Positions 6,523 to 57,092 of a DNA stretch of 64,000 nt are shown piece by piece. The stretch covers positions 18,032 to 82,031 of the IMG/VR virus record IMGVR_UViG_3300006467_000282; one strand, 5' to 3'. This DNA is from a virus. Its lineage: Duplodnaviria > Caudoviricetes. A program made the translations under genes and the position numbers. Within the stretch, counting starts at the first letter, position 1. Each line of letters starts with the position of its first letter. The notes beneath the pieces are model-generated. The model did not search any database and had not been told where the DNA came from. It worked only from the letters and a program-made list of their open reading frames with translations.

Positions 6523-8037
6523 TTAGTTCTCCTTATTATTTTTGGTTTTAATTGTGTTATTTGCTTTTTTGATTGAATCCATAAAATCGGATAAGAATTC
6601 AGTATCTACCTGTGGCTCGACATCAACGTCGTCCTTTGGAGTTTCTCTCACTTCGCGTTTAAGAAATTCCTTCATTTTAGATGCTAATATCTTAGCGTTT
6701 TTACTATTCAATCGAATACCTTCCCGTGCCAATTTCTCGAATTCCCTTACATTAAGAGATTCCAAATCATCAATTCGGAAGGACGAACTTTCATCAAATG
6801 GAGAATCCATATCCATTTTTCTGTAATATCTTTTGACGTGATTAATAACAGCTTGTCGTTCATCTGATGGTAAATCTACTCCACCACGTGCTCCTCTTAA
6901 AGCAGCAGCGGCAGCGAATACACCACGAGGAATTGCCATTAATTTACCGTCAATAACATCAGTAAATGGAAGTTTGTAAGCTCCAAATTTATCTTTTTCC
7001 TCTGCATCATACCAGAAAAAAGCTTTTTTATAATCTGTGCCTGGTTCTTCTACTGAATCTGTTAATGAACGAATTCTTTTGTTTCTTTCAGAAGCAGGAG
7101 CAAATGGTTTGTCCCTTGGAGCCAGGGGTAAATCCTGGTAGGGAGTTGCTGCTTTTTGCTTCATTCCAGTTACTAAAGCTAATTCATTCATTGGAACAGT
7201 TATCAAAGAAGTCTCAAACAACTTCAACTCATTTAGATAACGTGCATCATTTTCAAGGTCATAATCAACAGCTGAATAGCCAATACTCATCGAATCAATG
7301 GAACCGACTTTCATTTGAGGGATAACTCGATCTGTGACAAAACTATCAGTCTTTGGCATTTTACCTTCAACATATAATCCGTGAGGATCTTCCTTTAGAG
7401 TAGTAAATACGCCTAAAGGCATATCAGTTTTGTGTTGCCATAAAATCGGCAATTTACCTTCTTTTTGTTTTGACATCAGTTCAGCAGCAGTTTTAGTAAA
7501 TGCGCCTGGACGAATAATGTCTCCTCCACGATCCAGGTTATTAAAGGTTGCAGCATAGCCCGAAAAAGTAAAGTATAAATCTTCCTCTTCGTATTCTTTA
7601 ATCTCAAATGGAAAGCTTAGTTGTTTAATTTCTGAATCCATTTTACAAGCTCCTTTTATTTTATCAGTATTGTCTTTTATTTTAAAAGATTTATTCATTC
7701 TTTCGACTGCTTTCATTGCCCATTCGACACAAGCTGTTCCACCCCAGAGTAACCAAGCAATTGTACCGGATGTTGGTCCACCATCGTCATCTCTTTTACT
7801 TGGTTGATAACCTTCGCGATATTGATTAAATTCTGCAATACTTTTAATAGTTGCATTGCTTAATGGTCTACCTTTTATTAACTGATTTGCACGTACTACT
7901 CCAGATTCAAGTCCTTCCCTTCGGGATTGCTGTCGGGTTAATCCACCACGTTTCCATTTTCTTTTTATTTCCAAACCTGCTTTAGCATTTTCCTTAGCAG
8001 ATTTCGGTGGAGTTCTTTCCTCTGGTGTAAGAGTCAT
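6523..8037 (-). CDS. HK97-family prohead protease with extra N- and C-terminal domains
   Basis: Core FSGYAATFNNLDRGGDII, LWQH, MSIGY, LFETSLITVPMN; flanking domains of about 130 aa and about 200 aa. Confidence 0.9.
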   Translation of the reverse strand: MTLTPEERTPPKSAKENAKAGLEIKRKWKRGGLTRQQSRREGLESGVVRANQLIKGRPLSNATIKSIAEFNQYREGYQPSKRDDDGGPTSGTIAWLLWGGTACVEWAMKAVERMNKSFKIKDNTDKIKGACKMDSEIKQLSFPFEIKEYEEEDLYFTFSGYAATFNNLDRGGDIIRPGAFTKTAAELMSKQKEGKLPILWQHKTDMPLGVFTTLKEDPHGLYVEGKMPKTDSFVTDRVIPQMKVGSIDSMSIGYSAVDYDLENDARYLNELKLFETSLITVPMNELALVTGMKQKAATPYQDLPLAPRDKPFAPASERNKRIRSLTDSVEEPGTDYKKAFFWYDAEEKDKFGAYKLPFTDVIDGKLMAIPRGVFAAAAALRGARGGVDLPSDERQAVINHVKRYYRKMDMDSPFDESSSFRIDDLESLNVREFEKLAREGIRLNSKNAKILASKMKEFLKREVRETPKDDVDVEPQVDTEFLSDFMDSIKKANNTIKTKNNKEN

Positions 8038-10648: not shown

Positions 10649-11938
10649 TTATGCAAAGAATAAACCGGATTTCATTAGTGGCTCAACTGCATATCGAATT
10701 GGATCAATGCAATGGTTCCACGAATCTTCTATATCCGGTAATATTTCCTCTGTATGTTTGTCCACCTTATATGAATAATTTTCGAACTCTTCAATTGTTT
10801 TAACGCATCTTTTATGAATTATAATCTCATGATTCTTTAAAAAAGCAACGCCATCTTCAATTGATCCCTTACCTTTTTTGCAAGAAACTATTTTAAATCC
10901 TTTTTTCTTTACATGCGATATAGTATCTGGTCGTGAATTATCCGCTCGTATTACCCATTTCTTTACATCTGGGTGGACTTTTTCAAAGTTAGGTGCAATA
11001 TCATCTAATTCTACATGATTACCATAAAATTCATGAGTAATACATATCTTCTTATTATCTACATCTGCCCAAAGTCTTATAAGAGTACAAGCATCAGTGG
11101 AGAATCCCCAGTCAGATCCGTATCTTACAGCAATATTCTTTGGTCGTTCCGGAATATCACTTACAACTTTATAATACCCGAAGAATACACTTTTCTTTGA
11201 ATGCTTTTCAGTTTTGCCTAACCAAATATGAGCATGCTTATCTGGATCGATCTTCAAATCCCACTCCATATCACGTCTTAATTCTTCTGGAAAATATGGA
11301 TTTTGATCATAATTGATTTCTCGAACAATAGAAGAAGGCGGGGGTGGACCGATAACAAACATTTTGTATACTGGGTCTTTTTCGTTCTTAGGATTAAAAC
11401 TGAACCATAATTCAGATTCTTTTAAGAATTCTTTATCTTTCTCAGTCTGATATTCCTCCTCTGTTTCATCACCTAATGAAGTACCCGTTCTTATTGTAGG
11501 TATTAGTATATCTAAAGATTTTTGACTAAGCGACTGTGCTTCTTCACCCCAACAGATTGTTACGCCTTCAATTGATTTAACACTATCTATATTCTGGTAT
11601 AATCCATGGAAAATAAATATTGTACCAGTGAGTAAACATCTTATCTCTGTCTGAGTAGAATGAAAGTAGTCTTCAACTCCCATTCTTTTAATCTGATTAT
11701 CTAATAATCTTTTAACTGAATCTTTAATTGATTTTTGAACTTCACGCACGCATAGTATTAAATGTTGATCTTGCATTGCTAAAATAATCAGAGAAGAACC
11801 AATTGATCTGGACTTAGCTCCGGCACGCCCACCATGCATAACTTTATATCGTGCTTGTTCTTGTAACAAAAAATCGAACGCTTTTGGTATTCTAACTACA
11901 GGCTCTAATGGTTCTATGATATTTGCTAAGGAATACAT
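10649..11938 (-). CDS. terL: Terminase large subunit, PBSX/XtmB family
   Basis: HGGRAGAKS Walker A, CVREVQKSIKDS, WGEEA Walker B, FNP, DWGF, NHCIDPIRYA. Confidence 0.93.
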   Translation of the reverse strand: MYSLANIIEPLEPVVRIPKAFDFLLQEQARYKVMHGGRAGAKSRSIGSSLIILAMQDQHLILCVREVQKSIKDSVKRLLDNQIKRMGVEDYFHSTQTEIRCLLTGTIFIFHGLYQNIDSVKSIEGVTICWGEEAQSLSQKSLDILIPTIRTGTSLGDETEEEYQTEKDKEFLKESELWFSFNPKNEKDPVYKMFVIGPPPPSSIVREINYDQNPYFPEELRRDMEWDLKIDPDKHAHIWLGKTEKHSKKSVFFGYYKVVSDIPERPKNIAVRYGSDWGFSTDACTLIRLWADVDNKKICITHEFYGNHVELDDIAPNFEKVHPDVKKWVIRADNSRPDTISHVKKKGFKIVSCKKGKGSIEDGVAFLKNHEIIIHKRCVKTIEEFENYSYKVDKHTEEILPDIEDSWNHCIDPIRYAVEPLMKSGLFFA

Positions 11939-11942
11939 TTAG

Positions 11943-12704
11943 TTATACGTACTCCACTTTTATGCCTTTAAGTCGGCCACCATCTAATATTGAACCGGAA
12001 TGCTCTGTCTTACTTTTGCTTGCTGGATATTTATCAAGAAGTTTACCGATTTCTGTTACTGCTCGTATTTTATCGGAATCGGATTTTGATGAATTGGAAA
12101 TTTCTCTTAAATTTAGGATTAATTCATGACGTTCTAAGTCGACTTCATTCTCTACAAAGAATTTAATCTTCTGTATCAGAAGTGCTATATCTTCTTTTAC
12201 AAGTAGTGAGGATGCTTTCGCATTAGCCAGGTTATTTTTTATGCCCGGCTCATTAAATGCTTTACGATATAAATCGCCATTTCTAACGGAACCTTTTTTC
12301 GAGGAGGGCAAATATTCCTTTTCGAATACTAATTTTACAAAATTTTGCTCTTCTTCGGAAAGCGGAAGAAAGTTTTCATCTTCATCGAAAGGAAATTCAT
12401 TTAATATTTCAATATCGTCATTCGATTCTTTCTTTCTTTCAATATCAAGAGCCCATGATTCATTTCGAATGGCCGCCATTTTGACATTTATATCTATAAC
12501 ATCACTGATTGCTGCTTCAAATGTATCGATTTTATCTTTAACTGCTTTTTGGATTTGACTATCGGAATTGATTATTTTTTTAAGATCATTTATTGGTATA
12601 TTAGTTTTCAATGACACTAAACCGAGCTTGCCGTTTAAACGATTAATCGTTTGCAACAACTCTTCTTTTTCTGTCTCATCGATTAATGTGGCTACATTAT
12701 CCAT
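11943..12704 (-). CDS. terS: Terminase small subunit
   Basis: Directly upstream of terL; KSDSDKIRAVTEIGKLL...KTEHSG C-terminus. Confidence 0.7.
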   Translation of the reverse strand: MDNVATLIDETEKEELLQTINRLNGKLGLVSLKTNIPINDLKKIINSDSQIQKAVKDKIDTFEAAISDVIDINVKMAAIRNESWALDIERKKESNDDIEILNEFPFDEDENFLPLSEEEQNFVKLVFEKEYLPSSKKGSVRNGDLYRKAFNEPGIKNNLANAKASSLLVKEDIALLIQKIKFFVENEVDLERHELILNLREISNSSKSDSDKIRAVTEIGKLLDKYPASKSKTEHSGSILDGGRLKGIKVEYV

Positions 12705-27979: not shown

Positions 27980-28008
27980 TTTACAAAATAATATTTCTAT
28001 GATATAGT
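27980..28008 (+). promoter_or_regulatory. Promoter TTTACA-N17-TATAGT with extended TG, heading the base-modification cluster
   Basis: Direct reading. Confidence 0.75.
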
Positions 28009-28039
28009 GTTTATTATTTAACCAAATACGAGAGGTATT

Positions 28040-28549
28040 ATGGAACACGCATTTTTAGTAGAAATAAATACAATGAATTATCGGAAATGGGATTCTAATA
28101 AAAATGAAATTCATGGACGATTTGTAATAATGGAAAGTCCGACACAGCTAAGCGATTATTTTCCGCAAGAAAAATTAGTTCAGCTAAGAACAAATATTCG
28201 TGGTAAAGAAAGCAAGTCAGATATCAGTAAATCAGCTAAAAAGTTAGCAAAAGAATGTTATAATGCAATCATAAAAATTAAACCACAAGTTCAATCTACA
28301 GTTAACCCTAAAGTTAACTCCACAGAAAAGAAAGTAACTAAATCTGGCCGCTTAAGAGAGTATTTTCTAATGAATGAAAGCGGTTCTGTATCGGATTTAG
28401 TTGCTTTTACAGGTTTTGATGAGAAAAATCTCAGAACAGCAGTTAGTATTTTAGCAAATCCTGGTAGAACAAAATATCCAATAGTTATTCAGTATGATTC
28501 CGACAATAAAATATATAAATTAGAAAAGGAGGATGAATGCCAAGCATAA
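28040..28549 (+). CDS. Hypothetical protein with a possible C-terminal winged helix
   Basis: GAGG RBS; SVSDLVAFTGFDEKNLRTAVSIL. Confidence 0.65.
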   Translation: MEHAFLVEINTMNYRKWDSNKNEIHGRFVIMESPTQLSDYFPQEKLVQLRTNIRGKESKSDISKSAKKLAKECYNAIIKIKPQVQSTVNPKVNSTEKKVTKSGRLREYFLMNESGSVSDLVAFTGFDEKNLRTAVSILANPGRTKYPIVIQYDSDNKIYKLEKEDECQA

Positions 28550-29028
28550 TATTTGAAGGACCAGATGGAGCTGGTAAAAGTTATATTGCAAGTTATATAA
28601 GTACAGTATCTAAAATTCCAATTTATCATGCTGGAGGACCACCAAAAACTCCGGAAGAAATAGTGGAACGTGCTAATAAAATGGTGAAAATGGAAAACAA
28701 GATATTTGATAGATTTCCTATAATTTCTGAACAAATATATGGAACTATCGTCAGGGATAATAATCCCTTTAACTTTGGAGATTTAAAAGATATTCCTTTT
28801 CCCGTTGTATATTGCAGACCTTTTCGAGAGACATTGCTTTCATCAGAAAAAATTGAAAAGGATTATAAAGCAGGTAAACATATGAAGAGTGTCCTGGAAA
28901 AATATGAACAAATTATCGACAAATATGACGAACTTATGAGTTCGTTACCACATTTAACCTTTAATAGGGATTTAGAATCATGTGCGGACTTTCTTACACG
29001 ATTGGAAAGAACAATATTGAGAAAATGA
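28537..29028 (+). CDS. Thymidylate-kinase-like dNMP kinase
   Basis: IIFEGPDGAGKS P-loop; DRF...SEQIYG. Confidence 0.85.
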   Translation: MPSIIFEGPDGAGKSYIASYISTVSKIPIYHAGGPPKTPEEIVERANKMVKMENKIFDRFPIISEQIYGTIVRDNNPFNFGDLKDIPFPVVYCRPFRETLLSSEKIEKDYKAGKHMKSVLEKYEQIIDKYDELMSSLPHLTFNRDLESCADFLTRLERTILRK

Positions 29029-30314
29029 ACGAAACCCTCAGGCATCGAGGAATACGTTCAAGTTATAAAAAATTAAATGATAATGATTTATATCTCGGCC
29101 ATACCCGACTTCCAATTCAGGGGGTTGATAAAAGATATGACCAACCATCTGTATATGGAAATTATACAGCAGCAATGGTTGGAGAATTGTTTAATTTCAG
29201 AGCAATGGACCCAAGTGCAAGGACTGATTTATCTGTTTTAATGGATCAATATTCAATGAACGGGTCAAATGTATTTATGAATTTTGATGGGTTTTGGTCA
29301 GTCATTATTTATAATGAATTTACGGGTTATACTGATATTTTCACAGATCATCTTGCAAAGAAACCCTTATACTATAGAACTGATCTGTGCGCATTTGCTT
29401 CAGAAATAAAAGCATTAACTGTATTAGGTGAAAATACATTTGATAAAACTTATTTCTCAGCTGTTGCTAAATGGGGATACTGCCCTGAAGATCGTACACC
29501 CTTTAGCGAAATCAAAAAGTTGCCCGGTGGAGCACATATCCAGTTGAATTCTATGGGTTATGTAATTAATTCTAAGTCCTATCTAAGTCTATTACCAAGT
29601 CCATCCGCAAGTTTAGAACTTATTATGGAAGATGCAGTTCGAAATCGTTTGGTATCTGATGTTCCAGTTTCCTTGCTCATGAGTGGTGGTTTGGATAGTA
29701 CAATTATATATTATCTTATGAGAAAACATACAGATTCGATGACTATTTTTCATATAGATAATGATGAAGCAGAATATTTGAATTATATTGACTTTCGCCC
29801 ACAAGACAAACTTATTTCCTTATCCATTGATGATACCTTATACGATACAGATGAAGTACTTTGGCATAATGATGGACCTGTTGATCTTGGATCGTTAATG
29901 CCTCAGTATCTTCTTGCAAAGGAAATTAAAAAACATGGATTTAACGTGTGCTTATCAGGTGATGGTGCTGATGAATTGTTCGGTGGATATAAAAGGATAA
30001 CTGAATATGATTCACAGTATTCTGATATATTTCATGAGCTTGCTTATTATCATTTACCAAGGCTGGATAAAATGATGATGGCTCATACAATTGAATTGCG
30101 TTCACCATTTCTTGCCCATTATGTAATTGAACACGCGCTGTCTATGAAGTATGAAGACAGGATTAATAAAATAGGATTAAAAGAAGCATTCAAACATATT
30201 GTTCCTGAAGAAATAGTTAATCGTAAGAAAAAACCATTAAGATATCGTACCGATTGGCGGCACGATTTGATTAAACAATATAAAGATCTAATAATCAAGC
30301 GAGGTTTAGTATGA
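28980..30314 (+). CDS. Asparagine-synthetase B-like amidotransferase (Ntn-GAT + PP-loop)
   Basis: MCG N-terminus, RHRG, GHTRL, MSGGLDS, SGDGADELFGGY, RLDKMMMAHTIELRSPFL. Confidence 0.9.
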   Translation: MCGLSYTIGKNNIEKMNETLRHRGIRSSYKKLNDNDLYLGHTRLPIQGVDKRYDQPSVYGNYTAAMVGELFNFRAMDPSARTDLSVLMDQYSMNGSNVFMNFDGFWSVIIYNEFTGYTDIFTDHLAKKPLYYRTDLCAFASEIKALTVLGENTFDKTYFSAVAKWGYCPEDRTPFSEIKKLPGGAHIQLNSMGYVINSKSYLSLLPSPSASLELIMEDAVRNRLVSDVPVSLLMSGGLDSTIIYYLMRKHTDSMTIFHIDNDEAEYLNYIDFRPQDKLISLSIDDTLYDTDEVLWHNDGPVDLGSLMPQYLLAKEIKKHGFNVCLSGDGADELFGGYKRITEYDSQYSDIFHELAYYHLPRLDKMMMAHTIELRSPFLAHYVIEHALSMKYEDRINKIGLKEAFKHIVPEEIVNRKKKPLRYRTDWRHDLIKQYKDLIIKRGLV

Positions 30315-30961
30315 ATGTAAATGATGTAGAAGAAATTGAAATTGAAGGTGATATGCTCGAAGCAATATTTGCGAAACAGAAATCATTGATGGATAAATAT
30401 CATGTGATTGAAGAAAAGCAGGGAGTTGGGTATGGAATATTGAAAGGTAATCCTTTTGATATCAATGAAATCCGCTCTCAATGTTTGGTAAAAGATTTTG
30501 CTTGGCGGTTTACAGAAGAAATTACTGAAGCTTCCGAGGGATTATTGAATGGGGAAACGGCGCATTTTCTAGAAGAACTTGCTGATGCTCTTCATTTCAT
30601 AACTGAACTTTGTATTATGGTTGAGATTACTCCGAAAGATCTTATTGGCGAATTCCTCGGTTATAATCCTGATCAGGATATGTTTTATAAGTTATTTTTT
30701 GTTTGTGGTATGCCTAGAAAAGCTCTTCCGGATACATACAAACCAATTTACCATATGGGTTTGGCAATGAATTGCTTGAAACAAAAACCATGGAAGCAAA
30801 CACACATTCTTACAGACCAAACTGCTTTTAAAAAACATATAATAGATTCCTACAGAGCTTTTTGTGAATATATGTCCCATTTTGAAGATGACAAAACTAT
30901 GGCCAGTTATTATTTCAAAAAGAACGTTGTAAATCAATTCCGTCAAGACACACAATACTAA
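30311..30961 (+). CDS. All-alpha dimeric dUTPase/dCTPase-like pyrophosphatase
   Basis: TEEITEA, EELADALHF, KPWK, Y.KKN.VN.FRQ...Y. Confidence 0.8.
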   Translation: MNVNDVEEIEIEGDMLEAIFAKQKSLMDKYHVIEEKQGVGYGILKGNPFDINEIRSQCLVKDFAWRFTEEITEASEGLLNGETAHFLEELADALHFITELCIMVEITPKDLIGEFLGYNPDQDMFYKLFFVCGMPRKALPDTYKPIYHMGLAMNCLKQKPWKQTHILTDQTAFKKHIIDSYRAFCEYMSHFEDDKTMASYYFKKNVVNQFRQDTQY

Positions 30962-30971
30962 TGGAGGTAAT

Positions 30972-31334
30972 ATGGGTTCTGTGATTGCAAGAATAAATGG
31001 TAATCGGTGTAAGTTCAATAATAACAAACATTTCGCTTTATATTTAATCGAAATATTGATTTACTCAGTTTCTCCCTTAGACGTTAAACTTAAAACCCTG
31101 GCTGAAATAATGGAAATGTCCGGACATAAAAGACGAATTAAATCCTGGGGTAAGGTTGATACTGATGAAAAATTTTCTAAATTATATTCAGAAACAATTC
31201 TTGCAATGGAAAATCTTTCCCCATTACCCGGTTTCAGTTCTTCAAAACCGAATGCTGTAAAAGCTGGATATAATAACCCGGAAAGAGGTCGGATATCGAC
31301 TGATTGGACAAAAGATAAGAATCTTAACAAATAA
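30972..31334 (+). CDS. Hypothetical protein inside the modification cluster
   Basis: GGAGG RBS. Confidence 0.7.
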   Translation: MGSVIARINGNRCKFNNNKHFALYLIEILIYSVSPLDVKLKTLAEIMEMSGHKRRIKSWGKVDTDEKFSKLYSETILAMENLSPLPGFSSSKPNAVKAGYNNPERGRISTDWTKDKNLNK

Positions 31335-31336
31335 AT

Positions 31337-31543
31337 ATGTTTGAAGAGTTTGATAAAATACAGCGTGAAAATGCAGAGGGTAACACTTGCCGTACATGTA
31401 AATATTGTGCTAAATCAAACTTACTTACTAATCATTACTATTATTATTGCCACGTTCTACGATCAAAAAGAACGCGTTCTAAAATGATGAGAGTTAAACT
31501 AAAAGACAGAGCATGCGTAAATTACAAGGAGAAGAAAAAATGA
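31337..31543 (+). CDS. Small Cys-rich protein
   Basis: CRTCKYC...C...AC. Confidence 0.55.
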   Translation: MFEEFDKIQRENAEGNTCRTCKYCAKSNLLTNHYYYYCHVLRSKRTRSKMMRVKLKDRACVNYKEKKK

Positions 31544-32391
31544 CATACGAAATTGAACACGTAAATCTAAAGAAACAAGAAATTCCAGATGATTATCATT
31601 GCGATTGTGACTTTTGCAAAGAATTCGGTGGAGTACTAATTCGTGAAGACGGAACAAAATACAACAAACTCGAACGCCGTAAATACTATGATACTGAAAA
31701 TGAAAAGACTCATATTGCAAAAACACCATTGCACGTTGCTCGCTGGGCAATTCAGGAATATAGCGATGAAGCTGAAAATGTTCTTGATCCAACAATGGGT
31801 GCAGGTACAACTGCAGTAGAAGCTCTTATGCAGAAGAGAAATGCATTCGGAGTTGAAATTCAGTTCATTGACGTTATTAAAGCTAATATTGCAAAATGTA
31901 ATCCATATGATATGCATGCAAAAATATATCATGGTGATGCTCGTGGTATTGCAGATTACTTCAGGGGTGAATCATTTGATTTGATTATTAATAATCCACC
32001 ATATTCTGGGGATGAAAATCAAACAAGTTTTGGCGGGGATAAACGCAACATGATGGAATACGATAAAACCCTGGCTAAGAATCTTGCTTTCATGAAAGAA
32101 AATGAGGCGTATTGGGGTACAATGTCAGATATCTATCGGGCTGCAACCAGGAGATTAAAAGTAGGTGGGCGTCTGGTAATTGGTGTTAAAGATATGGTGA
32201 AAAATAAAGCTCCATTCCTGATTCATAAACATTACGGCGAAGGTATAATGCGAATTGAAGATATGAGATTTGAAAAAATGGTTCTTCTTCCACATTATCC
32301 GACAACACTTTTCATGAATACATACAATAAACGCTTTCCAGATGTCAAAGTTCCACAATACCAAACAATACTTGTGTTTATAAAAGTTTAA
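31540..32391 (+). CDS. N6-adenine/N4-cytosine amino-methyltransferase family protein
   Basis: HIAKTP, VLDPTMGAGTT (motif I) before NNPPY (motif IV), LKVGGRL. Start set at 31540 behind AAGGAG. Confidence 0.85.
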   Translation: MTYEIEHVNLKKQEIPDDYHCDCDFCKEFGGVLIREDGTKYNKLERRKYYDTENEKTHIAKTPLHVARWAIQEYSDEAENVLDPTMGAGTTAVEALMQKRNAFGVEIQFIDVIKANIAKCNPYDMHAKIYHGDARGIADYFRGESFDLIINNPPYSGDENQTSFGGDKRNMMEYDKTLAKNLAFMKENEAYWGTMSDIYRAATRRLKVGGRLVIGVKDMVKNKAPFLIHKHYGEGIMRIEDMRFEKMVLLPHYPTTLFMNTYNKRFPDVKVPQYQTILVFIKV

Positions 32392-32398
32392 ATAGATA

Positions 32399-32427
32399 TT
32401 TACAAAATAATGTTTTTATAATATAAT
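32399..32427 (+). promoter_or_regulatory. Promoter TTTACA-N17-TATAAT
   Basis: Directly upstream of the TS homolog. Confidence 0.75.
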
Positions 32428-32454
32428 GTATCATTATTAATTAACGGAGGTACA

Positions 32455-33168
32455 ATGAGAATATTTACAAATCCAGTAGAAATGGTTAAAGAAGTTGAAC
32501 GAGATTTATTTGAAATGGGAACTCGTTATCAGTCATCAACAGTGCAGGATCAAGACGTGGCAGATGATCCTGATTTCCAAACAATGGAATTATGTGGATA
32601 TGCTTATATGTTGACTGAATTTGATTCAAACAATATGTTTGATATGCTTGATCATTCCGGGAAAATTAACGCAGAATGGTTGAACTACGAAGACCAGGAA
32701 CGTCGATATGGAACTACTGACAGACCACTAAATCCAGGATTAGCTTATACATTTAATGGTGAATTCTGGGAGAAATTTATTAGAAATGGCGTATTCTCTT
32801 ATTCATATGCTGAGCGTTTCCAAGCACAACTCCCCTATATTATTCGGGAATTAAAAGCTAAACCGAATACTCGCCAAGCAGTTATGACAATGTATGATCG
32901 TCACCAAGATATGATGCATTGGGGCGGACGAGATCGTGTTCCTTGCTCATTGACTTATCAGTTTATGTTGAGAGAAGATAAACTTGTTCTGATTTATAAC
33001 CAAAGATCTTGTGATTTTGTTAAGTTTTTCCCATCAGATGTTTGGTTAACAGTTAATCTGCTTAAACATGTTGCAAGAGAAATTGGTAAAGAACCAGGGC
33101 AGTTTATCCATATGCTTGGATCACTCCATGCATTTGCAGGTGATCTTAAAGGTAAAGAGATATTCTGA
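32455..33168 (+). CDS. dCMP hydroxymethylase-like thymidylate-synthase homolog
   Basis: ELKAKPNTRQA, VPCSLTYQF, QRSCDFVKFFPSD (Asp at the ThyA Asn177 / T4 gp42 Asp179 site), GSLHAF. Confidence 0.85.
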   Translation: MRIFTNPVEMVKEVERDLFEMGTRYQSSTVQDQDVADDPDFQTMELCGYAYMLTEFDSNNMFDMLDHSGKINAEWLNYEDQERRYGTTDRPLNPGLAYTFNGEFWEKFIRNGVFSYSYAERFQAQLPYIIRELKAKPNTRQAVMTMYDRHQDMMHWGGRDRVPCSLTYQFMLREDKLVLIYNQRSCDFVKFFPSDVWLTVNLLKHVAREIGKEPGQFIHMLGSLHAFAGDLKGKEIF

Positions 33169-33347
33169 TGAAAAAGAAAGATAGATACTGGGCAGTTTTT
33201 TCTCCAACTGGAGCAATGTTTACATCTACAATTAGAAAAAGAGAGGGAGATTGTAAACCTGCCTTTTTTAAAAACTATATTATGCGCCGGCATGAGTACG
33301 ATAGTTGTAGTACTCGGGAAGTACTTATCACTGAAATAAAAAAATAA
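33168..33347 (+). CDS. Hypothetical protein (59 aa)
   Basis: TGATG coupling; not in the track. Confidence 0.5.
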   Translation: MKKKDRYWAVFSPTGAMFTSTIRKREGDCKPAFFKNYIMRRHEYDSCSTREVLITEIKK

Positions 33348-33388
33348 GAATATATTTTAATTTAATTTTAAAAGCAGAGGAAAGAAGA

Positions 33389-33799
33389 ATGAAAAAAATT
33401 AACGTAACGAATGTATTATTTTTATTGGCAATTCTATTTGTATTAAGTATTTTAACCCTCAATGGTTGTGGAAATGAAGATGCTCGAGTTGCATCCAATA
33501 ATCTATCAAAAGCTGCAGATATGTTTGAGATTAATAGAAGAGTTGTTTTTTACAACGGCATTACTGATAAGTATATCTTATCAATTGAAGGACGTTGCGC
33601 AGTAGAGTTTTTTCCAAATAAATTTACTGTAACTATAAAAACTGGTCCGAATGAATTCAAAAAGCATTACTTGGGAAGAGCTGATAATGTTTTCCCTTTC
33701 GTTGAACAACTTGATGCTGTACCAGTGGATGTTTATCATTATAAAGTCATCTTCAAACCACAGTCAATTATTCCAGATATAGATATGAAAGTAAAGTAG
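33389..33799 (+). CDS. Conserved phage lipoprotein
   Basis: Signal peptide with lipobox-like LNGC; DARVASNNLSKAADMFEINRRVVFYNGITD. Confidence 0.8.
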   Translation: MKKINVTNVLFLLAILFVLSILTLNGCGNEDARVASNNLSKAADMFEINRRVVFYNGITDKYILSIEGRCAVEFFPNKFTVTIKTGPNEFKKHYLGRADNVFPFVEQLDAVPVDVYHYKVIFKPQSIIPDIDMKVK

Positions 33800-33837
33800 G
33801 GGCTAATAAATTAATTATAATTACAGGAGAGAAACAC

Positions 33838-33875
33838 TAATCCTGAAGGCTTTTCAGTCCCGGTTTTCAGGATTA
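33838..33875. other. Stem-loop TAATCCTGAA...TTCAGGATTA
   Basis: Perfect 10-bp inverted repeat in an intergenic gap. Confidence 0.6.
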
Positions 33876-33899
33876 ATAATCACTAAAGGAAATATAATA

Positions 33900-34223
33900 A
33901 TGAAAATGCCAAGAGAAAAACGCAGAAAATCTGAAAATGGATTATGCGCAACAGATCAAATCATGTATATGCCACAACATGTTAAAGGTGATGTTGATCA
34001 TCCAGACGTTGAAATCGGTTTTATTGTCGGAATTACTTATGATCGAACTGAAGCTTTTTGCCGATATTTCCAAAAGGGAAGTAAGACTGAATTCAGAACA
34101 AGAGCAAATAGTGAGTGTACTCCAGTTAATTGCTTAAGTAAATTAGATCATAAAGATCGAATTGACCAAGAAATCGTGGATGAATGGCTTGAAGATATAG
34201 TTAACGGGAGGGATTTACCATGA
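33900..34223 (+). CDS. Hypothetical protein
   Basis: AAGGA RBS. Confidence 0.65.
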   Translation: MKMPREKRRKSENGLCATDQIMYMPQHVKGDVDHPDVEIGFIVGITYDRTEAFCRYFQKGSKTEFRTRANSECTPVNCLSKLDHKDRIDQEIVDEWLEDIVNGRDLP

Positions 34224-34483
34224 CCCATTACTCGGAAGACCCAAGAAGAGTAAGAGTTGATTTCTTTAAACCTTCCGGAAAATGGTATGCAACTGAAGCT
34301 GTATTATGGACAGGAAGATACGGAGGCAAAGACCAACTAATTCATGACGCATTTAAAACAAGTTTACAAAAGCATTTCGAAGATCATCCTAACAGCCTAA
34401 AAGAAATGGATGCAATTTGTTTAAAACCTTATCATGAAAATGCTCACCCGATTCAAATTAAAGCAGGAGGATGGAATAAATGA
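34220..34483 (+). CDS. Conserved small phage protein
   Basis: VRVDFFKPSGKWY. Confidence 0.7.
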   Translation: MTHYSEDPRRVRVDFFKPSGKWYATEAVLWTGRYGGKDQLIHDAFKTSLQKHFEDHPNSLKEMDAICLKPYHENAHPIQIKAGGWNK

Positions 34484-34716
34484 TGTTAGAATTTTTCATT
34501 GGCAATATACAAGAAACTTCCCTTGAAAATACAGCAGGAACAGTATTGAATAGGAAAGCAATAGAAAATATTGTCACAGAAATAATTCGTACAGGAAATA
34601 TTAGTATTAATTTTATTGATATCCTTATAAATGAAAACGAATCAGATAAAGGTCATCTTGTTAAAGCATCTACTTTCAGAAATGAATTAAAAGAATATAT
34701 AGAGGGAATAGATTAA
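34480..34716 (+). CDS. Hypothetical protein
   Basis: GGAGG RBS; overlap. Confidence 0.6.
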   Translation: MMLEFFIGNIQETSLENTAGTVLNRKAIENIVTEIIRTGNISINFIDILINENESDKGHLVKASTFRNELKEYIEGID

Positions 34717-35172
34717 ATGAAAAGACCATCGCAAGATAAATATTTCATGTCAATGGCGATGCTTGCTGCAACACGCTCAAATTGTTATCGTCGGCAAGTA
34801 GGTTGTGTAATTATTGATAAAGAAAATCGTGTACTTGCCACAGGCTACAATGGCGTTCCTTCAGGATATCCCCACTGCGAAATCGGGGAATGCCCAAGAG
34901 ATAAACCTGGGGCGGATTTACATTTATGTCTTGCAATACATGCAGAACAGAATGCTCTATTGCAGTGTTCAGATGTAGATAAGATTCATAAAGTATATGT
35001 AACTGATAGTCCGTGTTTGACTTGCACAGTAATGTTGATGAATACTAATTGCAAGCAAATCCTATACAACAAGCCATATCCTGGGCATGAAACATCAAAA
35101 GATGCGTGGAAGAAACTAAATCGAATCTGGAGACAATATGACTTTCGTTCAAGCACCATTATTCCCAACTAA
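34717..35172 (+). CDS. dCMP deaminase
   Basis: RSNCYRRQVGCVI, TGYNG, IHAEQNAL, SPCLTC. Confidence 0.92.
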   Translation: MKRPSQDKYFMSMAMLAATRSNCYRRQVGCVIIDKENRVLATGYNGVPSGYPHCEIGECPRDKPGADLHLCLAIHAEQNALLQCSDVDKIHKVYVTDSPCLTCTVMLMNTNCKQILYNKPYPGHETSKDAWKKLNRIWRQYDFRSSTIIPN

Positions 35173-37153
35173 AGCAAAATGGGAATTGCCCAAGGAATTA
35201 CCGAATCTATCTGGAGCTAAAGTAATCGGACTCGATACTGAGACACGCGATCCACAGCTTATAGAAAAAGGTCCGGGGGTAAGACGAGATGGATACCTGG
35301 TTGGAATATCAGTTGCAGTTCCAGAAGGTGATACCTGGTATTTGCCATTTGGCCATGCTGAAGGTAAACAATTTGAACGTGAAAATGTGTTACGTTGGGC
35401 AAAAGATAATCTATGCAATCCAAATCAACCAAAAGTCGGAGCAAATATATTATATGATTTAGATTATCTATATCATGCAGGAGTAAAAGTAGCAGGATCT
35501 TTCTTTGATATCCAAAATGCAGAACCGTTAATAGATGAAAATGCATATAGTTATTCTCTTGACACTTTAGCCAGGAAATATTTAGGTGAGAGCAAGCGGG
35601 AAGATATCTTAGATGATGTTTGTCGAGATTACGGATTAAAGGGTAAATCTCAAAAGCATTTATGGAGATTCGGTGCTGAATATACCGGAACATATGCTGA
35701 GGGTGATGCAATCCAAGCTCTGCGAATATTTGAAAAACAGAAACCTGTTATTGCAGCGCAGGGATTAGAAACAGTGTTTGATATGGAAACACGTCTTATA
35801 CCAATGCTTTTGCATATGAGACAACTCGGTGTACCAATTGATGTTGATCGATTAATGGGTTTACATGATCAAATGACAGGTGAGCTTGATCAGCACAAGC
35901 TCGATCTTGATAATATTGCAGGTAGTCATATTGATTACTGGGCAGCAGAGTCAATTGCTAAAGTATTTGATAAATCAGGGATTGATTATCCATTAACACC
36001 CAAATCTAAAAAGCCATCATTCACAAAAGATTGGCTTGATAATCATGGAAGTGATCTTTCCAGAAAGATATTGAAATGTAGAGAAGTCGACAAATTTGTA
36101 GGAACATTTCTTGAAGGTTCACTATTAGAAATGTTAGTTGGGGATCGGATTCATTGTCAATTTAATCAATTAAGGTCAGATGAATTTGGAACAGTAACAG
36201 GTAGATTCTCATCCTCAAATCCCAACTTACAATTTATTCCTACAAGAACAGCTTTAGGGAAACTTTGCCGAAAATTATTCATACCAGACGAAGGTTATGG
36301 GTGGTGTAAAGCAGATTATTCTCAAATCGAAATAAGAATATTAGCACATTATGCAATGGGGAACGGAGCAGATGACGTTCGTCAAACTTTTATAGATAAT
36401 CCCAGAGTCGATTATCACCAATGGTGTGCTGATATTGCAGGAGTTAGTCGTAGTGCTGCAAAGACTATTAACTTTGGAATTGTTTATGGAATGGGAGCTG
36501 AAAAGCTTGGCCGATCATTAGGAATTCCAACACATGAAGCTAAGAAATTCATCGACAACTACTTTATAGAATTACCTTTTGTAAAACATACTGTAGGTCA
36601 AGCAACACAAGCAGCAGAAAAACGTGGATATATTAAAACTATTCTTGGTCGCCGTAGAAGATATGATCTTTGGGAACCAAATGATTTTGATCTTGGTAAA
36701 ATAATAAAAGCAGACCGTAGTCCGAAAGTAGTTGAGAAAAGAATAGAAAAATATATCTCAGAAAATAAAGGTAACCTCGGTAGAAAAGTTCGTCGGGGAG
36801 TAAAACGAGCAGGATGCTATCGAGCATTTAATGCTGCTGATCAGGGATCTGCAGCTGATATTATGAAACTTGCTTTAGTTGATATTTGGGAAAGTGGAGT
36901 CTGCGATGTTATTAAACCATATATAACTGTACACGATGAATTAGATTTTGGTTATCCACTTTCAAAAATCGGTAAAGAGGCAATTTATGAAGTTAAACAT
37001 ATCATGGAAGATGTTTATGAACTGAAAGTTCCAATGATCTGCGATATTGAAACCGGCCCGAATTGGGGCAATGTAAATGAACAGTGGAATTTATGTAATA
37101 AATATACTGAGGCAGGTCATAAATTTGCAGTAAAACAAGCGGAGATAGGATAA
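35138..37153 (+). CDS. DNA polymerase family A with 3'-5' exonuclease domain
   Basis: GLDTET, TGRFSSSNPNLQ, ADYSQIEIR, RSAAKTINFG, VHDEL. Confidence 0.95.
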   Translation: MTFVQAPLFPTKAKWELPKELPNLSGAKVIGLDTETRDPQLIEKGPGVRRDGYLVGISVAVPEGDTWYLPFGHAEGKQFERENVLRWAKDNLCNPNQPKVGANILYDLDYLYHAGVKVAGSFFDIQNAEPLIDENAYSYSLDTLARKYLGESKREDILDDVCRDYGLKGKSQKHLWRFGAEYTGTYAEGDAIQALRIFEKQKPVIAAQGLETVFDMETRLIPMLLHMRQLGVPIDVDRLMGLHDQMTGELDQHKLDLDNIAGSHIDYWAAESIAKVFDKSGIDYPLTPKSKKPSFTKDWLDNHGSDLSRKILKCREVDKFVGTFLEGSLLEMLVGDRIHCQFNQLRSDEFGTVTGRFSSSNPNLQFIPTRTALGKLCRKLFIPDEGYGWCKADYSQIEIRILAHYAMGNGADDVRQTFIDNPRVDYHQWCADIAGVSRSAAKTINFGIVYGMGAEKLGRSLGIPTHEAKKFIDNYFIELPFVKHTVGQATQAAEKRGYIKTILGRRRRYDLWEPNDFDLGKIIKADRSPKVVEKRIEKYISENKGNLGRKVRRGVKRAGCYRAFNAADQGSAADIMKLALVDIWESGVCDVIKPYITVHDELDFGYPLSKIGKEAIYEVKHIMEDVYELKVPMICDIETGPNWGNVNEQWNLCNKYTEAGHKFAVKQAEIG

Positions 37154-44915: not shown

Positions 44916-45142
44916 AAATCAAAAAAGATCAATTGGTAAAAGTTAATCATGTACGTAAAGGTAGATTTAATGCAATTGCAGATAATGATTTCGATACAGA
45001 TACAACAACATGGTATCCACTATCGGTAGCTCAGGAAGATCCAATTAATGGTTTTTCTACAGTAGCAAAGTGGAGAAAAGGCGAATCAATTCCATGTAGA
45101 AATTCACTCTGTGAGATTTCAATAATTGAGAAAGGTAAATAA
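44912..45142 (+). CDS. Hypothetical protein
   Basis: ATGA overlap; start reset from 44897. Confidence 0.65.
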   Translation: MKIKKDQLVKVNHVRKGRFNAIADNDFDTDTTTWYPLSVAQEDPINGFSTVAKWRKGESIPCRNSLCEISIIEKGK

Positions 45143-45143
45143 A

Positions 45144-46340
45144 ATGAAAAGCATAATAGTTTATTCGGGCAAGGGCGGAGTTGGGAAGACAACTACTACT
45201 GCAAACTTGGCAAAAGCACTTGTTGATAAAGGGAAAAGCGTATTTATATTGGACGCGGATATAAATACTCCATCCATGCATGTTGTTTTCCCAGATAAAA
45301 CTGTTAATAAGAACTTATACGTACATTCCATGGGGTATGATACTCGTGGATTAGTTTATATTCAAGGTAGTATGGTAAAAAAATACATCAGACAAGCAAA
45401 AACAAAAGTTAATAAGATGAAACCTGATATTGTATTGATTGATACTCCACCCTCTATAACAGATATTCATCTTAATTTAATTGAATCTTTGGAAGTATCT
45501 GGAGTTATTTTTGTAACTCAACCTAATAAACTAAGTATGGAAGATGTCGGTCGAACTTCTGGATTTTTTAAAACAAAAGAGATACCAGTAATTGGTATAA
45601 TTGAAAATATGAGTCAGGGAGAAGCTATTGATTATACAGTTTCTTTACTTGGCAAAATAAAATTCGAATCATCTTTTGATATTGAAAAAGTATTCAAGCT
45701 TAATTATAAAACTTATGATGAAATTTCTAATATAGTAATGGATGCGGAAGATGCAATATATGAAAGTAGTACAAAACAATTTACCGATGAATCTATTTCT
45801 GAAGAAGCTGTACAGGAAATGATGCGTTCTAAATTAATGCCTAAATTAAAGTTCGTTAATTTAGCAACTTGGGATTACCTGGTTGAATATTTCTTAGAAA
45901 ATGATTTTGCTGGATTATATTCTTTGGATAGATTTATAGATCATAATACAACAGAGAAAATAGGTAGAATGTTAAAAGCATTTGAGCATGATAAAGAAGC
46001 TTATTTTATGGTAATCAATGCTCCTTGTACACCTATTCCGATAATCACTGGCGAAATTGGTCAAGCAACTTTGATATTAGATAATCCATCACACTATGGT
46101 GTACCTTCAGTTGATTACCAAACCAACCAGGGAACAGTTAGATTATTTCCACATGAGATAATGCCGTTGGATTTGAAGGAATTGAATATTCATACACAGG
46201 AAGAAGGCGTCGTAATGACAACTGATGGTAGATATTTACCGTCAAAAGAAACTGTCGAAGCTTGTTATCATGCATATGGCAATCTTGCTGGATTATCAAG
46301 TAACTGGGAAGAAACTTACAATAAAATAGTGGCAGAATAA
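45144..46340 (+). CDS. Mrp/ApbC-like (ParA/MinD superfamily) ATPase with a C-terminal extra domain
   Basis: SGKGGVGKTT, LDADINTPS, IDTPP, VTQP, GIIENMS. Confidence 0.82.
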   Translation: MKSIIVYSGKGGVGKTTTTANLAKALVDKGKSVFILDADINTPSMHVVFPDKTVNKNLYVHSMGYDTRGLVYIQGSMVKKYIRQAKTKVNKMKPDIVLIDTPPSITDIHLNLIESLEVSGVIFVTQPNKLSMEDVGRTSGFFKTKEIPVIGIIENMSQGEAIDYTVSLLGKIKFESSFDIEKVFKLNYKTYDEISNIVMDAEDAIYESSTKQFTDESISEEAVQEMMRSKLMPKLKFVNLATWDYLVEYFLENDFAGLYSLDRFIDHNTTEKIGRMLKAFEHDKEAYFMVINAPCTPIPIITGEIGQATLILDNPSHYGVPSVDYQTNQGTVRLFPHEIMPLDLKELNIHTQEEGVVMTTDGRYLPSKETVEACYHAYGNLAGLSSNWEETYNKIVAE

Positions 46341-56283: not shown

Positions 56284-56457
56284 TTGAAAGAGAATACGTT
56301 TGCAAAAATGAATAGAACAAGCCTTTTCGAGCATATAAATGCTCTTGAAAAGATAAATGAAGATAAACAGAATATGATTGATTCTCTCGAACGATCTAAT
56401 AAAATGAAGAATAATATGATCGATAGATTAATCATAAAAAAGAATGGAGGAAAGTAA
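56284..56457 (+). CDS. Hypothetical protein (57 aa, TTG start)
   Basis: GGAGG RBS; TAATG coupling to thyX; not in the track. Confidence 0.45.
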   Translation: MKENTFAKMNRTSLFEHINALEKINEDKQNMIDSLERSNKMKNNMIDRLIIKKNGGK

Positions 56458-57092
56458 TGAAAGTCATTGAACAAAGTTTTGAAATTATTAGTTTGCCGGA
56501 AAATCTGCTTCAGACATTGGAAAAAGCAGGTAGAACATGTTACAAATCAGAAGATAAAATTACTGAAGATTCTGCAGCAAAATTCGTTGAAATGTTAATC
56601 AAACGGGGTCATCATGCAATGATTGAATTTGGGGATATCATTGTTAAGTGTATTACTAATCGTGGGGTTACTCATGAAATTGTAAGACATCGATTAAGTT
56701 CTTATGCACAGGAATCAACCCGATATGTTAATTATAAGGGCGGTATGGAATTTATAAGACCTGTTTGGATGAACAAGCTTTTAACTGATCCCGAATATGA
56801 TTCTTCATTTAAGAATCTTCCCGATAGTGATATAATATGGTTAAAAGCTATGGCACAATCTGAAAATTCATATCTTAATTTATTAGATGAAGGTTGGCGT
56901 CCAGAACAAGCACGAGAAGTATTGCCAAACTCATTAAAGACAGAAATTGTATGGAAAGCAAATATCCGGGAATGGAGACATATCTTCACCCTGAGAACAT
57001 CCCCAAAAGCACATCCACAAATGGTTGCTTTAATGACTCCTCTGCTGAAATATTTGCAGTCGGAAATTCCAGTAGTATTTGATGATTTATAA
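56457..57092 (+). CDS. thyX: Flavin-dependent thymidylate synthase
   Basis: RGHHAMIEF, RGVTHEIVRHRLSSYAQESTRY, ARE.LP, NIREWRH. Confidence 0.93.
   Translation: MKVIEQSFEIISLPENLLQTLEKAGRTCYKSEDKITEDSAAKFVEMLIKRGHHAMIEFGDIIVKCITNRGVTHEIVRHRLSSYAQESTRYVNYKGGMEFIRPVWMNKLLTDPEYDSSFKNLPDSDIIWLKAMAQSENSYLNLLDEGWRPEQAREVLPNSLKTEIVWKANIREWRHIFTLRTSPKAHPQMVALMTPLLKYLQSEIPVVFDDL

Follow-up and report, generated by a model that had tools for sequence, protein, structure and literature searches.

A 64,000-nucleotide stretch of DNA from an uncultured Caudoviricetes phage (IMG/VR record IMGVR_UViG_3300006467_000282, positions 18032-82031; the whole stretch is called the window here) carries, beside its DNA polymerase gene, a module that most likely swaps the cytosine of the phage DNA for an undescribed, nitrogen-bearing cytosine. 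The genome is complete at 82,031 bp, with direct terminal repeats and a G+C content of about 33%. Two enzymes stand at the center of the module, a thymidylate synthase (TS) homolog and an amidotransferase resembling asparagine synthetase B (AsnB). An earlier reading of the window, made from the sequence alone, had listed the genes of this block, and family searches recovered every one of them in place, on the + strand and within a single co-oriented block (28040-37153) whose genes are packed with short gaps or overlaps. The principal genes, together with a more distant one that bears on their interpretation, are the following:

28537..29028, + strand: thymidylate-kinase-like dNMP kinase (phrog_761, 1e-14; P-loop EGPDGAGKS)
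28980..30314, + strand: AsnB-like amidotransferase with N-terminal-nucleophile (Ntn) glutaminase and PP-loop domains (Pfam Asn_synthase, 7e-49, plus GATase_6/7)
30311..30961, + strand: all-alpha NTP pyrophosphatase, T4 gp56-like (dUTPase_2, PF08761, 33.4 bits against a cut-off of 22.9; phrog_12184, 7e-22)
31513..32391, + strand: putative permuted amino-methyltransferase (N6_N4_Mtase, 61 bits; likely true start 31540)
32455..33168, + strand: TS homolog of a distinct subclass (Thymidylat_synt, 2e-15)
34717..35172, + strand: dCMP deaminase with an intact zinc site (PF00383, 8e-22; phrog_174, 6e-41; HAEQNA and SPCLTC)
35138..37153, + strand: family A DNA polymerase (PolA) with 3'-5' exonuclease, which in our proposal must accept the modified dNTP
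56457..57092, + strand: ThyX, a flavin-dependent thymidylate synthase (Thy1, 1.4e-44; match at genome 74533-75105, window 56502-57074)

The pyrophosphatase, dCMP-type TS homolog, dNMP kinase and dCMP deaminase adjoining the polymerase do amount to the T4-style dC-replacement kit that the sequence-only reading had recognized. In T4, which replaces dC by hydroxymethylcytosine, the same enzyme families control the nucleotide pool and modify C5 of dCMP (gp56, gp42, gp1 and cd), and gp42 shares with the window TS homolog an Asp at the position of N177 of E. coli ThyA. The window departs from T4 in having Arg, not Asp, at the L143 position, no equivalent of E60 and no glycosyltransferase, the tailoring slot being taken by the AsnB-like amidotransferase. 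The lack of a recognizable glycosyltransferase, first noted for the window, extends to the complete 82,031-bp genome, where searches for the GT1, GT2 and T4 beta-glucosyltransferase families gave no match, the T4-family search having been run without a positive control.

The residue signature of the TS homolog separates it from the enzymes of this fold whose products are known. In alignments with E. coli ThyA, T4 gp42 and solved structures, the residue at the N177 position is Asp (QRSCDFVKFFPSD), bearing out what the sequence-only reading had held for this dUMP/dCMP selectivity position; the Asn177 by which ThyA selects dUMP is absent, and the 68 related TS homologs all carry Asp here. Asp at this position selects cytosine over uracil (PMC8670742; PMC13326640). 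The catalytic Cys146, Arg166 and Asp169 are invariant in the TS-homolog alignments. At the L143 position, where Leu accompanies a methyl product and Asp or Glu the hydroxymethyl and 5-hydroxy products (PMC13326640), an invariant Arg occurs in the window enzyme and in 68/68 TS homologs near an AsnB-like gene. Glu58 of ThyA (E60 of gp42) has no conserved counterpart, position 58 being variable (N, S, T and others) in an alignment that is less certain over the N-terminal half, and the C-terminus is short. The signature Arg143, Asp169 and Asp177 also occurs in the Clostridium perfringens phages CPD4, CP3 and CPAS-15.

Several identities proposed for this enzyme can be compared with that signature. 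A dCMP hydroxymethylase would combine Asp at N177 with Asp or Glu at L143, and the window enzyme has the former residue but Arg in place of the latter. The earlier assignment to a T4 gp42-like enzyme does not hold for this reason and for want of an E58/E60 equivalent, and a hydroxymethyl product therefore cannot be assumed. The 5-hydroxy-dCMP synthases (RB69 gp48, DLP3 gp80; Lee et al., NAR 2026, PMC13326640) are likewise short TS-fold dCMP enzymes with non-canonical chemistry, and they set a precedent for the exchange of folate for another cofactor in this fold. However, their diagnostic D169N substitution (PMC13326640) is absent from the window enzyme, whose RSCD motif keeps Asp169 where 9iqu has RSQN and which has Arg instead of Glu at position 143. 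The best solved relative, 9iqu/9iqc (1.7e-13), appears from its D169N and N177D residues to be of the 5-hydroxy-dCMP synthase type; that identity was rejected for the window TS homolog given its retained Asp169. A role as the dTMP synthase of the phage was also rejected in view of Asp177 and of ThyX, whose presence in the genome makes the TS homolog dispensable for dTMP. The thyX gene lies far from the nucleotide cluster, and the phage thus has a flavin-dependent thymidylate synthase in addition to a ThyA-fold enzyme. On these residues, the TS homologs are best treated as a separate subclass, with a product that is not readable from known relatives.

The partner enzyme combines the features of a working glutamine-dependent amidotransferase with an altered acceptor site. 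The AsnB-like protein starts with MCG, providing the N-terminal Cys nucleophile (MCG in 107/120 family members), its SGGLDS PP-loop is invariant, and the family keeps Cys1, R49, G75, E76, N79 and D98 of the glutaminase site as well as the ATP-binding lysines K429/K449. These residues are shared with E. coli AsnB, as is the two-domain fold: a structural model (pLDDT 93) has E. coli AsnB 1ct9 as its best match (TMq 0.75), and human ASNS, TsnB9 and beta-lactam synthetase are also matched. However, identity to E. coli AsnB is 23-24%, and the score against TIGR01536 (asparagine synthetase B) is 237.5 bits, under the cut-off of 267.1. Across 120 homologs the family differs from AsnB by N74V, E348D, K376E and T322D, by a 25-aa insert and by the loss of about 90 C-terminal residues; the oxyanion Asn74 is replaced by Val in 103 of the 120 and Glu348 by Asp in all of them. 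Unlike AsnB, the family was found in viruses only within the searches made, and its neighbors are nucleotide enzymes; the window gene overlaps the kinase gene by 49 nt and the pyrophosphatase gene by 4 nt. The protein is, judging from these residues, an AsnB-fold amidotransferase with an altered acceptor site and not an asparagine synthetase. More than 120 metagenomic homologs exceed 40% identity and a relative occurs on at least 392 IMG/VR contigs, while isolate phages have no member above 30% identity.

Conserved association of the two enzymes carries the argument that they act together. The open reading frames of 88 loci were scored against profiles derived from the window together with its first relatives. 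A TS homolog lies near the AsnB-like gene in 68/88 loci and a dCMP deaminase in 70/88; a C5-methyltransferase homolog was found nearby in 28/88 and an amino-methyltransferase in 25/88, and the kinase (22/88, directly upstream) and pyrophosphatase (19/88) were counted with narrow profiles. When the loci are placed on the AsnB-like tree, a TS homolog is no more than 7 kb away in 54 of 61 distinct, untruncated loci. The sequence-only reading had staked its proposal in advance on this pair recurring in related phages, and the proposal survives. The association is far beyond chance, extends over hundreds of viral contigs and has a fixed gene order. Two architectures occur, on unrelated backbones (PolA and T4-like), and in both the genes overlap or abut. 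In PolA phages the order is (helix-turn-helix gene)-kinase-AsnB-pyrophosphatase-...-methyltransferase-TS-deaminase-PolA, where the pyrophosphatase gene immediately follows the AsnB-like one. The T4-like phages have a compact (methyltransferase)-TS-AsnB-deaminase cassette, its deaminase gene next in line behind the AsnB-like gene, between the gp43 polymerase gene and uvsX, the position of gene 42 and beta-gt in T4. The minimal cassette consists of the TS homolog, the AsnB-like enzyme and the deaminase.

This association also bears on whether the AsnB-like enzyme takes part in base synthesis at all. It might instead supply the infected cell with asparagine or some other amide and owe its place to the clustering of early genes, leaving the TS homolog, kinase and pyrophosphatase alone to yield 5-methylcytosine, 5-hydroxymethylcytosine or another simple base. 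The cultured Clostridium phages CPD4, CP3 and CPAS-15 fit such an account, since they have the same TS subclass, the kinase and the pyrophosphatase and lack the AsnB-like gene; so does one AsnB-like clade that neighbors capsid genes and whose sequenced fragments contain no TS homolog, and the motifs of a working amidotransferase would suit many substrates. However, the order of the pair is fixed and often overlapping in the 54 loci and on both backbones, the family is virus-only in the searches made, its score lies below the AsnB cut-off with acceptor-site residues changed, and AsnB homologs acting on phage cytosine have a direct precedent (PMC12783734). We consider this explanation improbable.

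Some loci show further features beside the pair. The derived AsnB-like clade near a gp23-type capsid gene (L094, L058, L071, L073-75, L079, L081, L084, L087, L088 and L092) comes from incomplete jumbo-phage contigs; its substrate may differ, or its partner may be encoded far away, and the TS profile had no match in five jumbo-phage fragments with a lone AsnB-like gene, these fragments being just 18-47% complete. In CPD4 (L001, 48091-49645), which also has a kinase homolog, a 249-aa protein, gp74, is encoded between the pyrophosphatase and the TS homolog; the only family lead for it, a weak tetratricopeptide-repeat-like match, was set aside. On a 146-kb T4-like contig (L066; 6967-9361 and 11723-12565), the cassette is flanked by KDO-8-phosphate-synthase-like, CMP-KDO-synthetase-like, cytidylyltransferase and UDP-glucose-dehydrogenase-like genes, which could add a sugar acid to DNA or be unrelated. 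A marine T4-like phage with the cassette (L095) encodes ribosomal protein S21 (11820-12071), Cpn10 (7158-7451) and HSP20 (1799-2254); its AsnB-like protein is listed in 115 metagenome-index blocks, so this phage type is abundant.

The tight linkage of TS homolog, AsnB-like enzyme and deaminase is compatible with another division of labor, in which the AsnB-like enzyme would adenylate O4 of a 5-substituted dUMP and convert it to a dCMP analogue, as CTP synthase does, with the deaminase and the TS homolog feeding the reaction. PP-loop enzymes outside the AsnB family, such as GMP synthetase, TilS and ThiI, adenylate base carbonyls. However, we know of no AsnB-family member with this chemistry, Asp177 in all 68 TS homologs implies that they already act on cytosine and would make a detour through uracil needless, and a deaminase paired with an aminase would form a futile cycle. 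A C4 aminase is accordingly a very remote prospect.

The closest described chemistry comes from the Cmo system of Synechococcus phage S-B43, in which CmoA makes carboxy-S-adenosylmethionine (carboxy-SAM), the C5-methyltransferase homolog CmoX carboxymethylates DNA cytosine, with Arg350 of SpCmoX holding the carboxyl, and the asparagine-synthetase homolog CmoY activates the resulting 5-carboxymethylcytosine of the phage DNA by adenylating its carboxyl, to which it ligates glycine (Yang et al., Nat Commun 2025, PMC12783734). We located the cmo cluster in the S-B43 genome. The second largest CmoY cluster has a glutamine-hydrolysing domain and was predicted to use ammonia and form a primary amide, although its protein was not obtained soluble; TS homologs are nowhere mentioned in that study (PMC12783734). 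The earlier statement that no characterized phage base is made in this way is outdated in light of CmoY and the predicted glutamine-dependent subgroup. Topic searches of the literature linking asparagine synthetase to phage base modification gave no direct result. In the MetaGPA supplement GATase_7 was not enriched in modified contigs, and the samples of that study may simply lack these phages.

As in the Cmo system, an AsnB homolog in the window would tailor the C5 substituent of phage cytosine by ATP-dependent amide formation, and a basic residue would clamp an acid group. The closest relative in an isolate phage is gp124 of Streptomyces phage TurkishDelight (27% identity over the full length, pairwise E 6e-33), which is flanked by CmoX (37% to SpCmoX, with the SPPC motif) and CmoA homologs (gp123-125). 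It has both the glutaminase and the synthetase domain, like the window enzyme, but keeps N74 and E348 where the window family has V74 and D348. SpCmoY lacks a glutaminase domain and is barely alignable to the window family (hhalign probability 43%). CmoY-type enzymes have a synthetase domain beside CmoX (SPPC, Arg350) and CmoA; the window has the domain but not these neighbors. No TIGR00740 match to CmoA and no PF00145 match to a C5-methyltransferase occurs in the complete genome, and none of the 88 loci has an SpCmoA homolog. In contrast to the Cmo system, the AsnB-like enzyme is partnered here by a TS-fold enzyme for dCMP in the company of a kinase and a pyrophosphatase, which favors a pre-replicative route over carboxymethylation of DNA after replication.

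Methyltransferases of two kinds accompany the module. In the window enzyme, motif I (DPTMGAGTT, residues 92-99) precedes NNPPY (160-164), and the N-terminus carries DYHCxCxxC. This order is the reverse of that in beta-class N6/N4 DNA methyltransferases (PF01555), where motif IV comes first, and the two halves match TTHA0409 (2zie) in swapped order; PrmC, Trm11 and UPF0020 are matched weakly besides N6_N4_Mtase. The enzyme is, by its motif order, a permuted relative of the beta-class DNA amino-methyltransferases. A fold search returned generic class I methyltransferases only, which cannot separate DNA, RNA and amide targets, and the enzyme may either methylate the nitrogen of the newly formed amide or amine or serve as an ordinary DNA methyltransferase. 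Homologs 43-53% identical adjoin the TS homolog on both backbones, in the 25 loci counted above, and the T4-like relatives have GTPY in place of NPPY. The methyltransferase proposed earlier is therefore present in the cluster, but the part in the base assigned to it is not supported: it occurs in few of the loci, and T4 too keeps dam beside gene 56, so that adjacency alone proves little.

The second kind is represented by the C5-methyltransferase homologs of related modules (L004:4422-6829, L005:7584-9104, L008:13037-14260 and others), which have GHPECG as motif IV rather than PCQ or SPPC. At the position of SpCmoX Arg350 and HhaI Asn304 they carry Lys (KQTGK[AF]MP), the same substitution as in the engineered M.MpeI N374K, which accepts carboxy-SAM (PMC12783734). 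Together, the two features suggest a natural carboxy-SAM-type transferase distinct from CmoX. An invariant basic residue near C5 in both the TS homolog and this accessory enzyme further suggests that both install an acid group.

From gene content, residue signatures and co-occurrence, all of them observed, we infer every chemical step and the product of the following route. The all-alpha pyrophosphatase, probably a dCTPase/dUTPase supplying dCMP, would convert dCTP to dCMP. The TS homolog, cytosine-specific through Asp177 and bearing Arg143, would then attach a substituent at C5 of dCMP through the Cys-C6 covalent chemistry usual for this fold. The AsnB-like enzyme would adenylate an oxygen function of the substituent, most likely a carboxyl, which glutamine-derived ammonia would replace to give a carboxamide, such as a 5-carbamoylmethyl-type cytosine; amidation could take place either on the nucleotide or on DNA. 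The kinase, predicted to phosphorylate the modified dCMP, would form the triphosphate together with host enzymes, and PolA would incorporate it, while the dCMP deaminase and ThyX would sustain the dTTP supply. The deaminase named in the sequence-only reading is present, and its HAE and PCxxC motifs are intact, but a tailoring role for it is needless: because the phage encodes ThyX, the deaminase is explained as supplier of dUMP for dTMP synthesis.

Pre-replicative replacement of cytosine, with an acid handle first placed on dCMP by the TS homolog and then converted to an amide by the AsnB-like enzyme, is a serious candidate, if somewhat short of probable. The AsnB-family members among the solved structures and curated families matched all activate a carboxylate. 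The invariant Arg of the TS homologs, at a position where others have Leu, Asp or Glu, parallels the carboxylate clamp formed by Arg350 in SpCmoX (PMC12783734). More specifically, and more tentatively, the undescribed base may be an amide-bearing 5-substituted cytosine (such as 5-carbamoylmethyl- or 5-carbamoyl(hydroxy)methyl-cytosine) that carries an N-methyl group in phages with the NPPY methyltransferase, with the TS homolog using a non-folate acid donor held by Arg143. The suggestion in the sequence-only reading of a 5-substituted cytosine bearing an amine or amide is still the best guess for the base, although the chemistry of the product is deduced only.

Several observations weigh against an amide made from an acid handle. 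A product has been seen for no member of the AsnB-like family. With CmoA lacking from the genome and the 88 loci, and a C5-methyltransferase from the genome, the carboxymethyl donor is unaccounted for, unless carboxy-SAM from the host or another acid, such as glyoxylate or CO2, fills that role. A TS fold with a non-folate acid donor is to our knowledge unprecedented, the flavin-using 5-hydroxy-dCMP synthases aside, and Asp169, which binds the pterin in ThyA, is kept in the window TS homolog. Replacement of Asn74 by Val may imply a weak or altered glutaminase, and an anionic substrate could be disfavored by the new acidic residues of the predicted acceptor pocket. The 27% identity of TurkishDelight gp124 is hardly above that of E. 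coli AsnB, and SpCmoY is barely detectable. Finally, the 7 of 61 loci without a TS homolog belong to one derived clade, made up of incomplete jumbo-phage fragments.

Some of these points would be accommodated by an aminomethyl route. Here, the TS homolog would make 5-hydroxymethyl-dCMP or an exocyclic-methylene intermediate from methylene-tetrahydrofolate, and the AsnB-like enzyme, either by activating the hydroxyl as an AMP ester or by just delivering glutamine ammonia, would yield 5-aminomethyl-dC, which the NPPY methyltransferase could convert to 5-methylaminomethyl-dC. Such a route would parallel the formation of nm5U and mnm5U in tRNA (MnmEG, MnmC) and the phosphate-activated pathways of 5-hydroxymethyl-dU. 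The retained Asp169 makes folate binding plausible, the minimal cassette has no source of a second carbon and CmoA is found nowhere; an acidic acceptor pocket (T322D, K376E) fits a neutral or cationic cytosine substrate, and the amino-methyltransferase adjoins the TS homolog on both backbones. However, we know of no AsnB-family or PP-loop enzyme that adenylates an alcohol, the TS subclass lacks both E58/E60 and the Asp or Glu at 143 of the hydroxymethyl enzymes, and the Lys-bearing C5-methyltransferase homologs of related modules would be left unexplained. Activation of 5-hydroxymethyl pyrimidines with a leaving group, followed by amine attack, is established in thymidine hypermodification (PMC8989533). 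On balance, an aminomethyl base seems unlikely, and the probability that remains after these four readings falls to a chemistry not among them.

The other features of the region are given below.

27980..28008, + strand: promoter-like site (TTTACA-17-TATAGT with TG) in the intergenic gap preceding the block's first gene; consensus match only
28040..28549, + strand: 169-aa conserved protein of no family, the usual upstream neighbor of the kinase
30972..31334, + strand: 120-aa conserved protein of no family, with homologs in relatives
32399..32427, + strand: promoter-like site (TTTACA-17-TATAAT) in the intergenic gap preceding the TS homolog gene; consensus match only
33389-33799, + strand: Phage_VG64 / phrog_478 gene, "recombination directionality factor"-like (5e-48)

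Promoter-like sites are no more frequent across the whole region than in shuffled sequence. The 169-aa protein has no match in Pfam, PHROG or NCBIfam and is possibly a winged-helix, DUF3489-like DNA binder, its Atlas score against DUF3489 (0.87) lying under the trust level; homologs are present in 13/88 loci and stand upstream of the kinase in L004 and L008. Homologs of the 120-aa protein sit between the pyrophosphatase and the methyltransferase in L004, L006, L008 and L062; family searches with it were empty and a fold search gave no usable lead. The Phage_VG64 gene lies between the TS homolog and the deaminase and is not at that place in relatives. Elsewhere in the early region of this otherwise lytic-looking phage, 45126-46340 encodes a 404-aa ParA/NUBPL-type P-loop ATPase (1e-36). 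INPHARED holds no near-identical phage genome.

Whether phage DNA withstands restriction and CRISPR attack depends on its modified bases, and such bases have more than once been turned into tools for sequencing and DNA chemistry. The module described here is related to both T4-style dCMP modification and Cmo-style amide tailoring and is widespread, being common in viral contigs (at least 392 in IMG/VR) yet without a cultured representative. It pairs two enzymes whose known relatives do not reveal their chemistry, a TS-fold enzyme whose active-site Arg is unprecedented and an AsnB-like, glutamine-dependent one of the kind not obtained soluble in the only paper on such systems (PMC12783734). If an acid donor is indeed held by Arg143, the TS step would represent a kind of reaction not yet seen in the thymidylate synthase fold, and one that many marine T4-like phages would share. 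Solving the module would probably add a new natural DNA base and a new TS-fold reaction, and it would also show that an amide-type modification of cytosine can be made before replication and not on finished DNA only.

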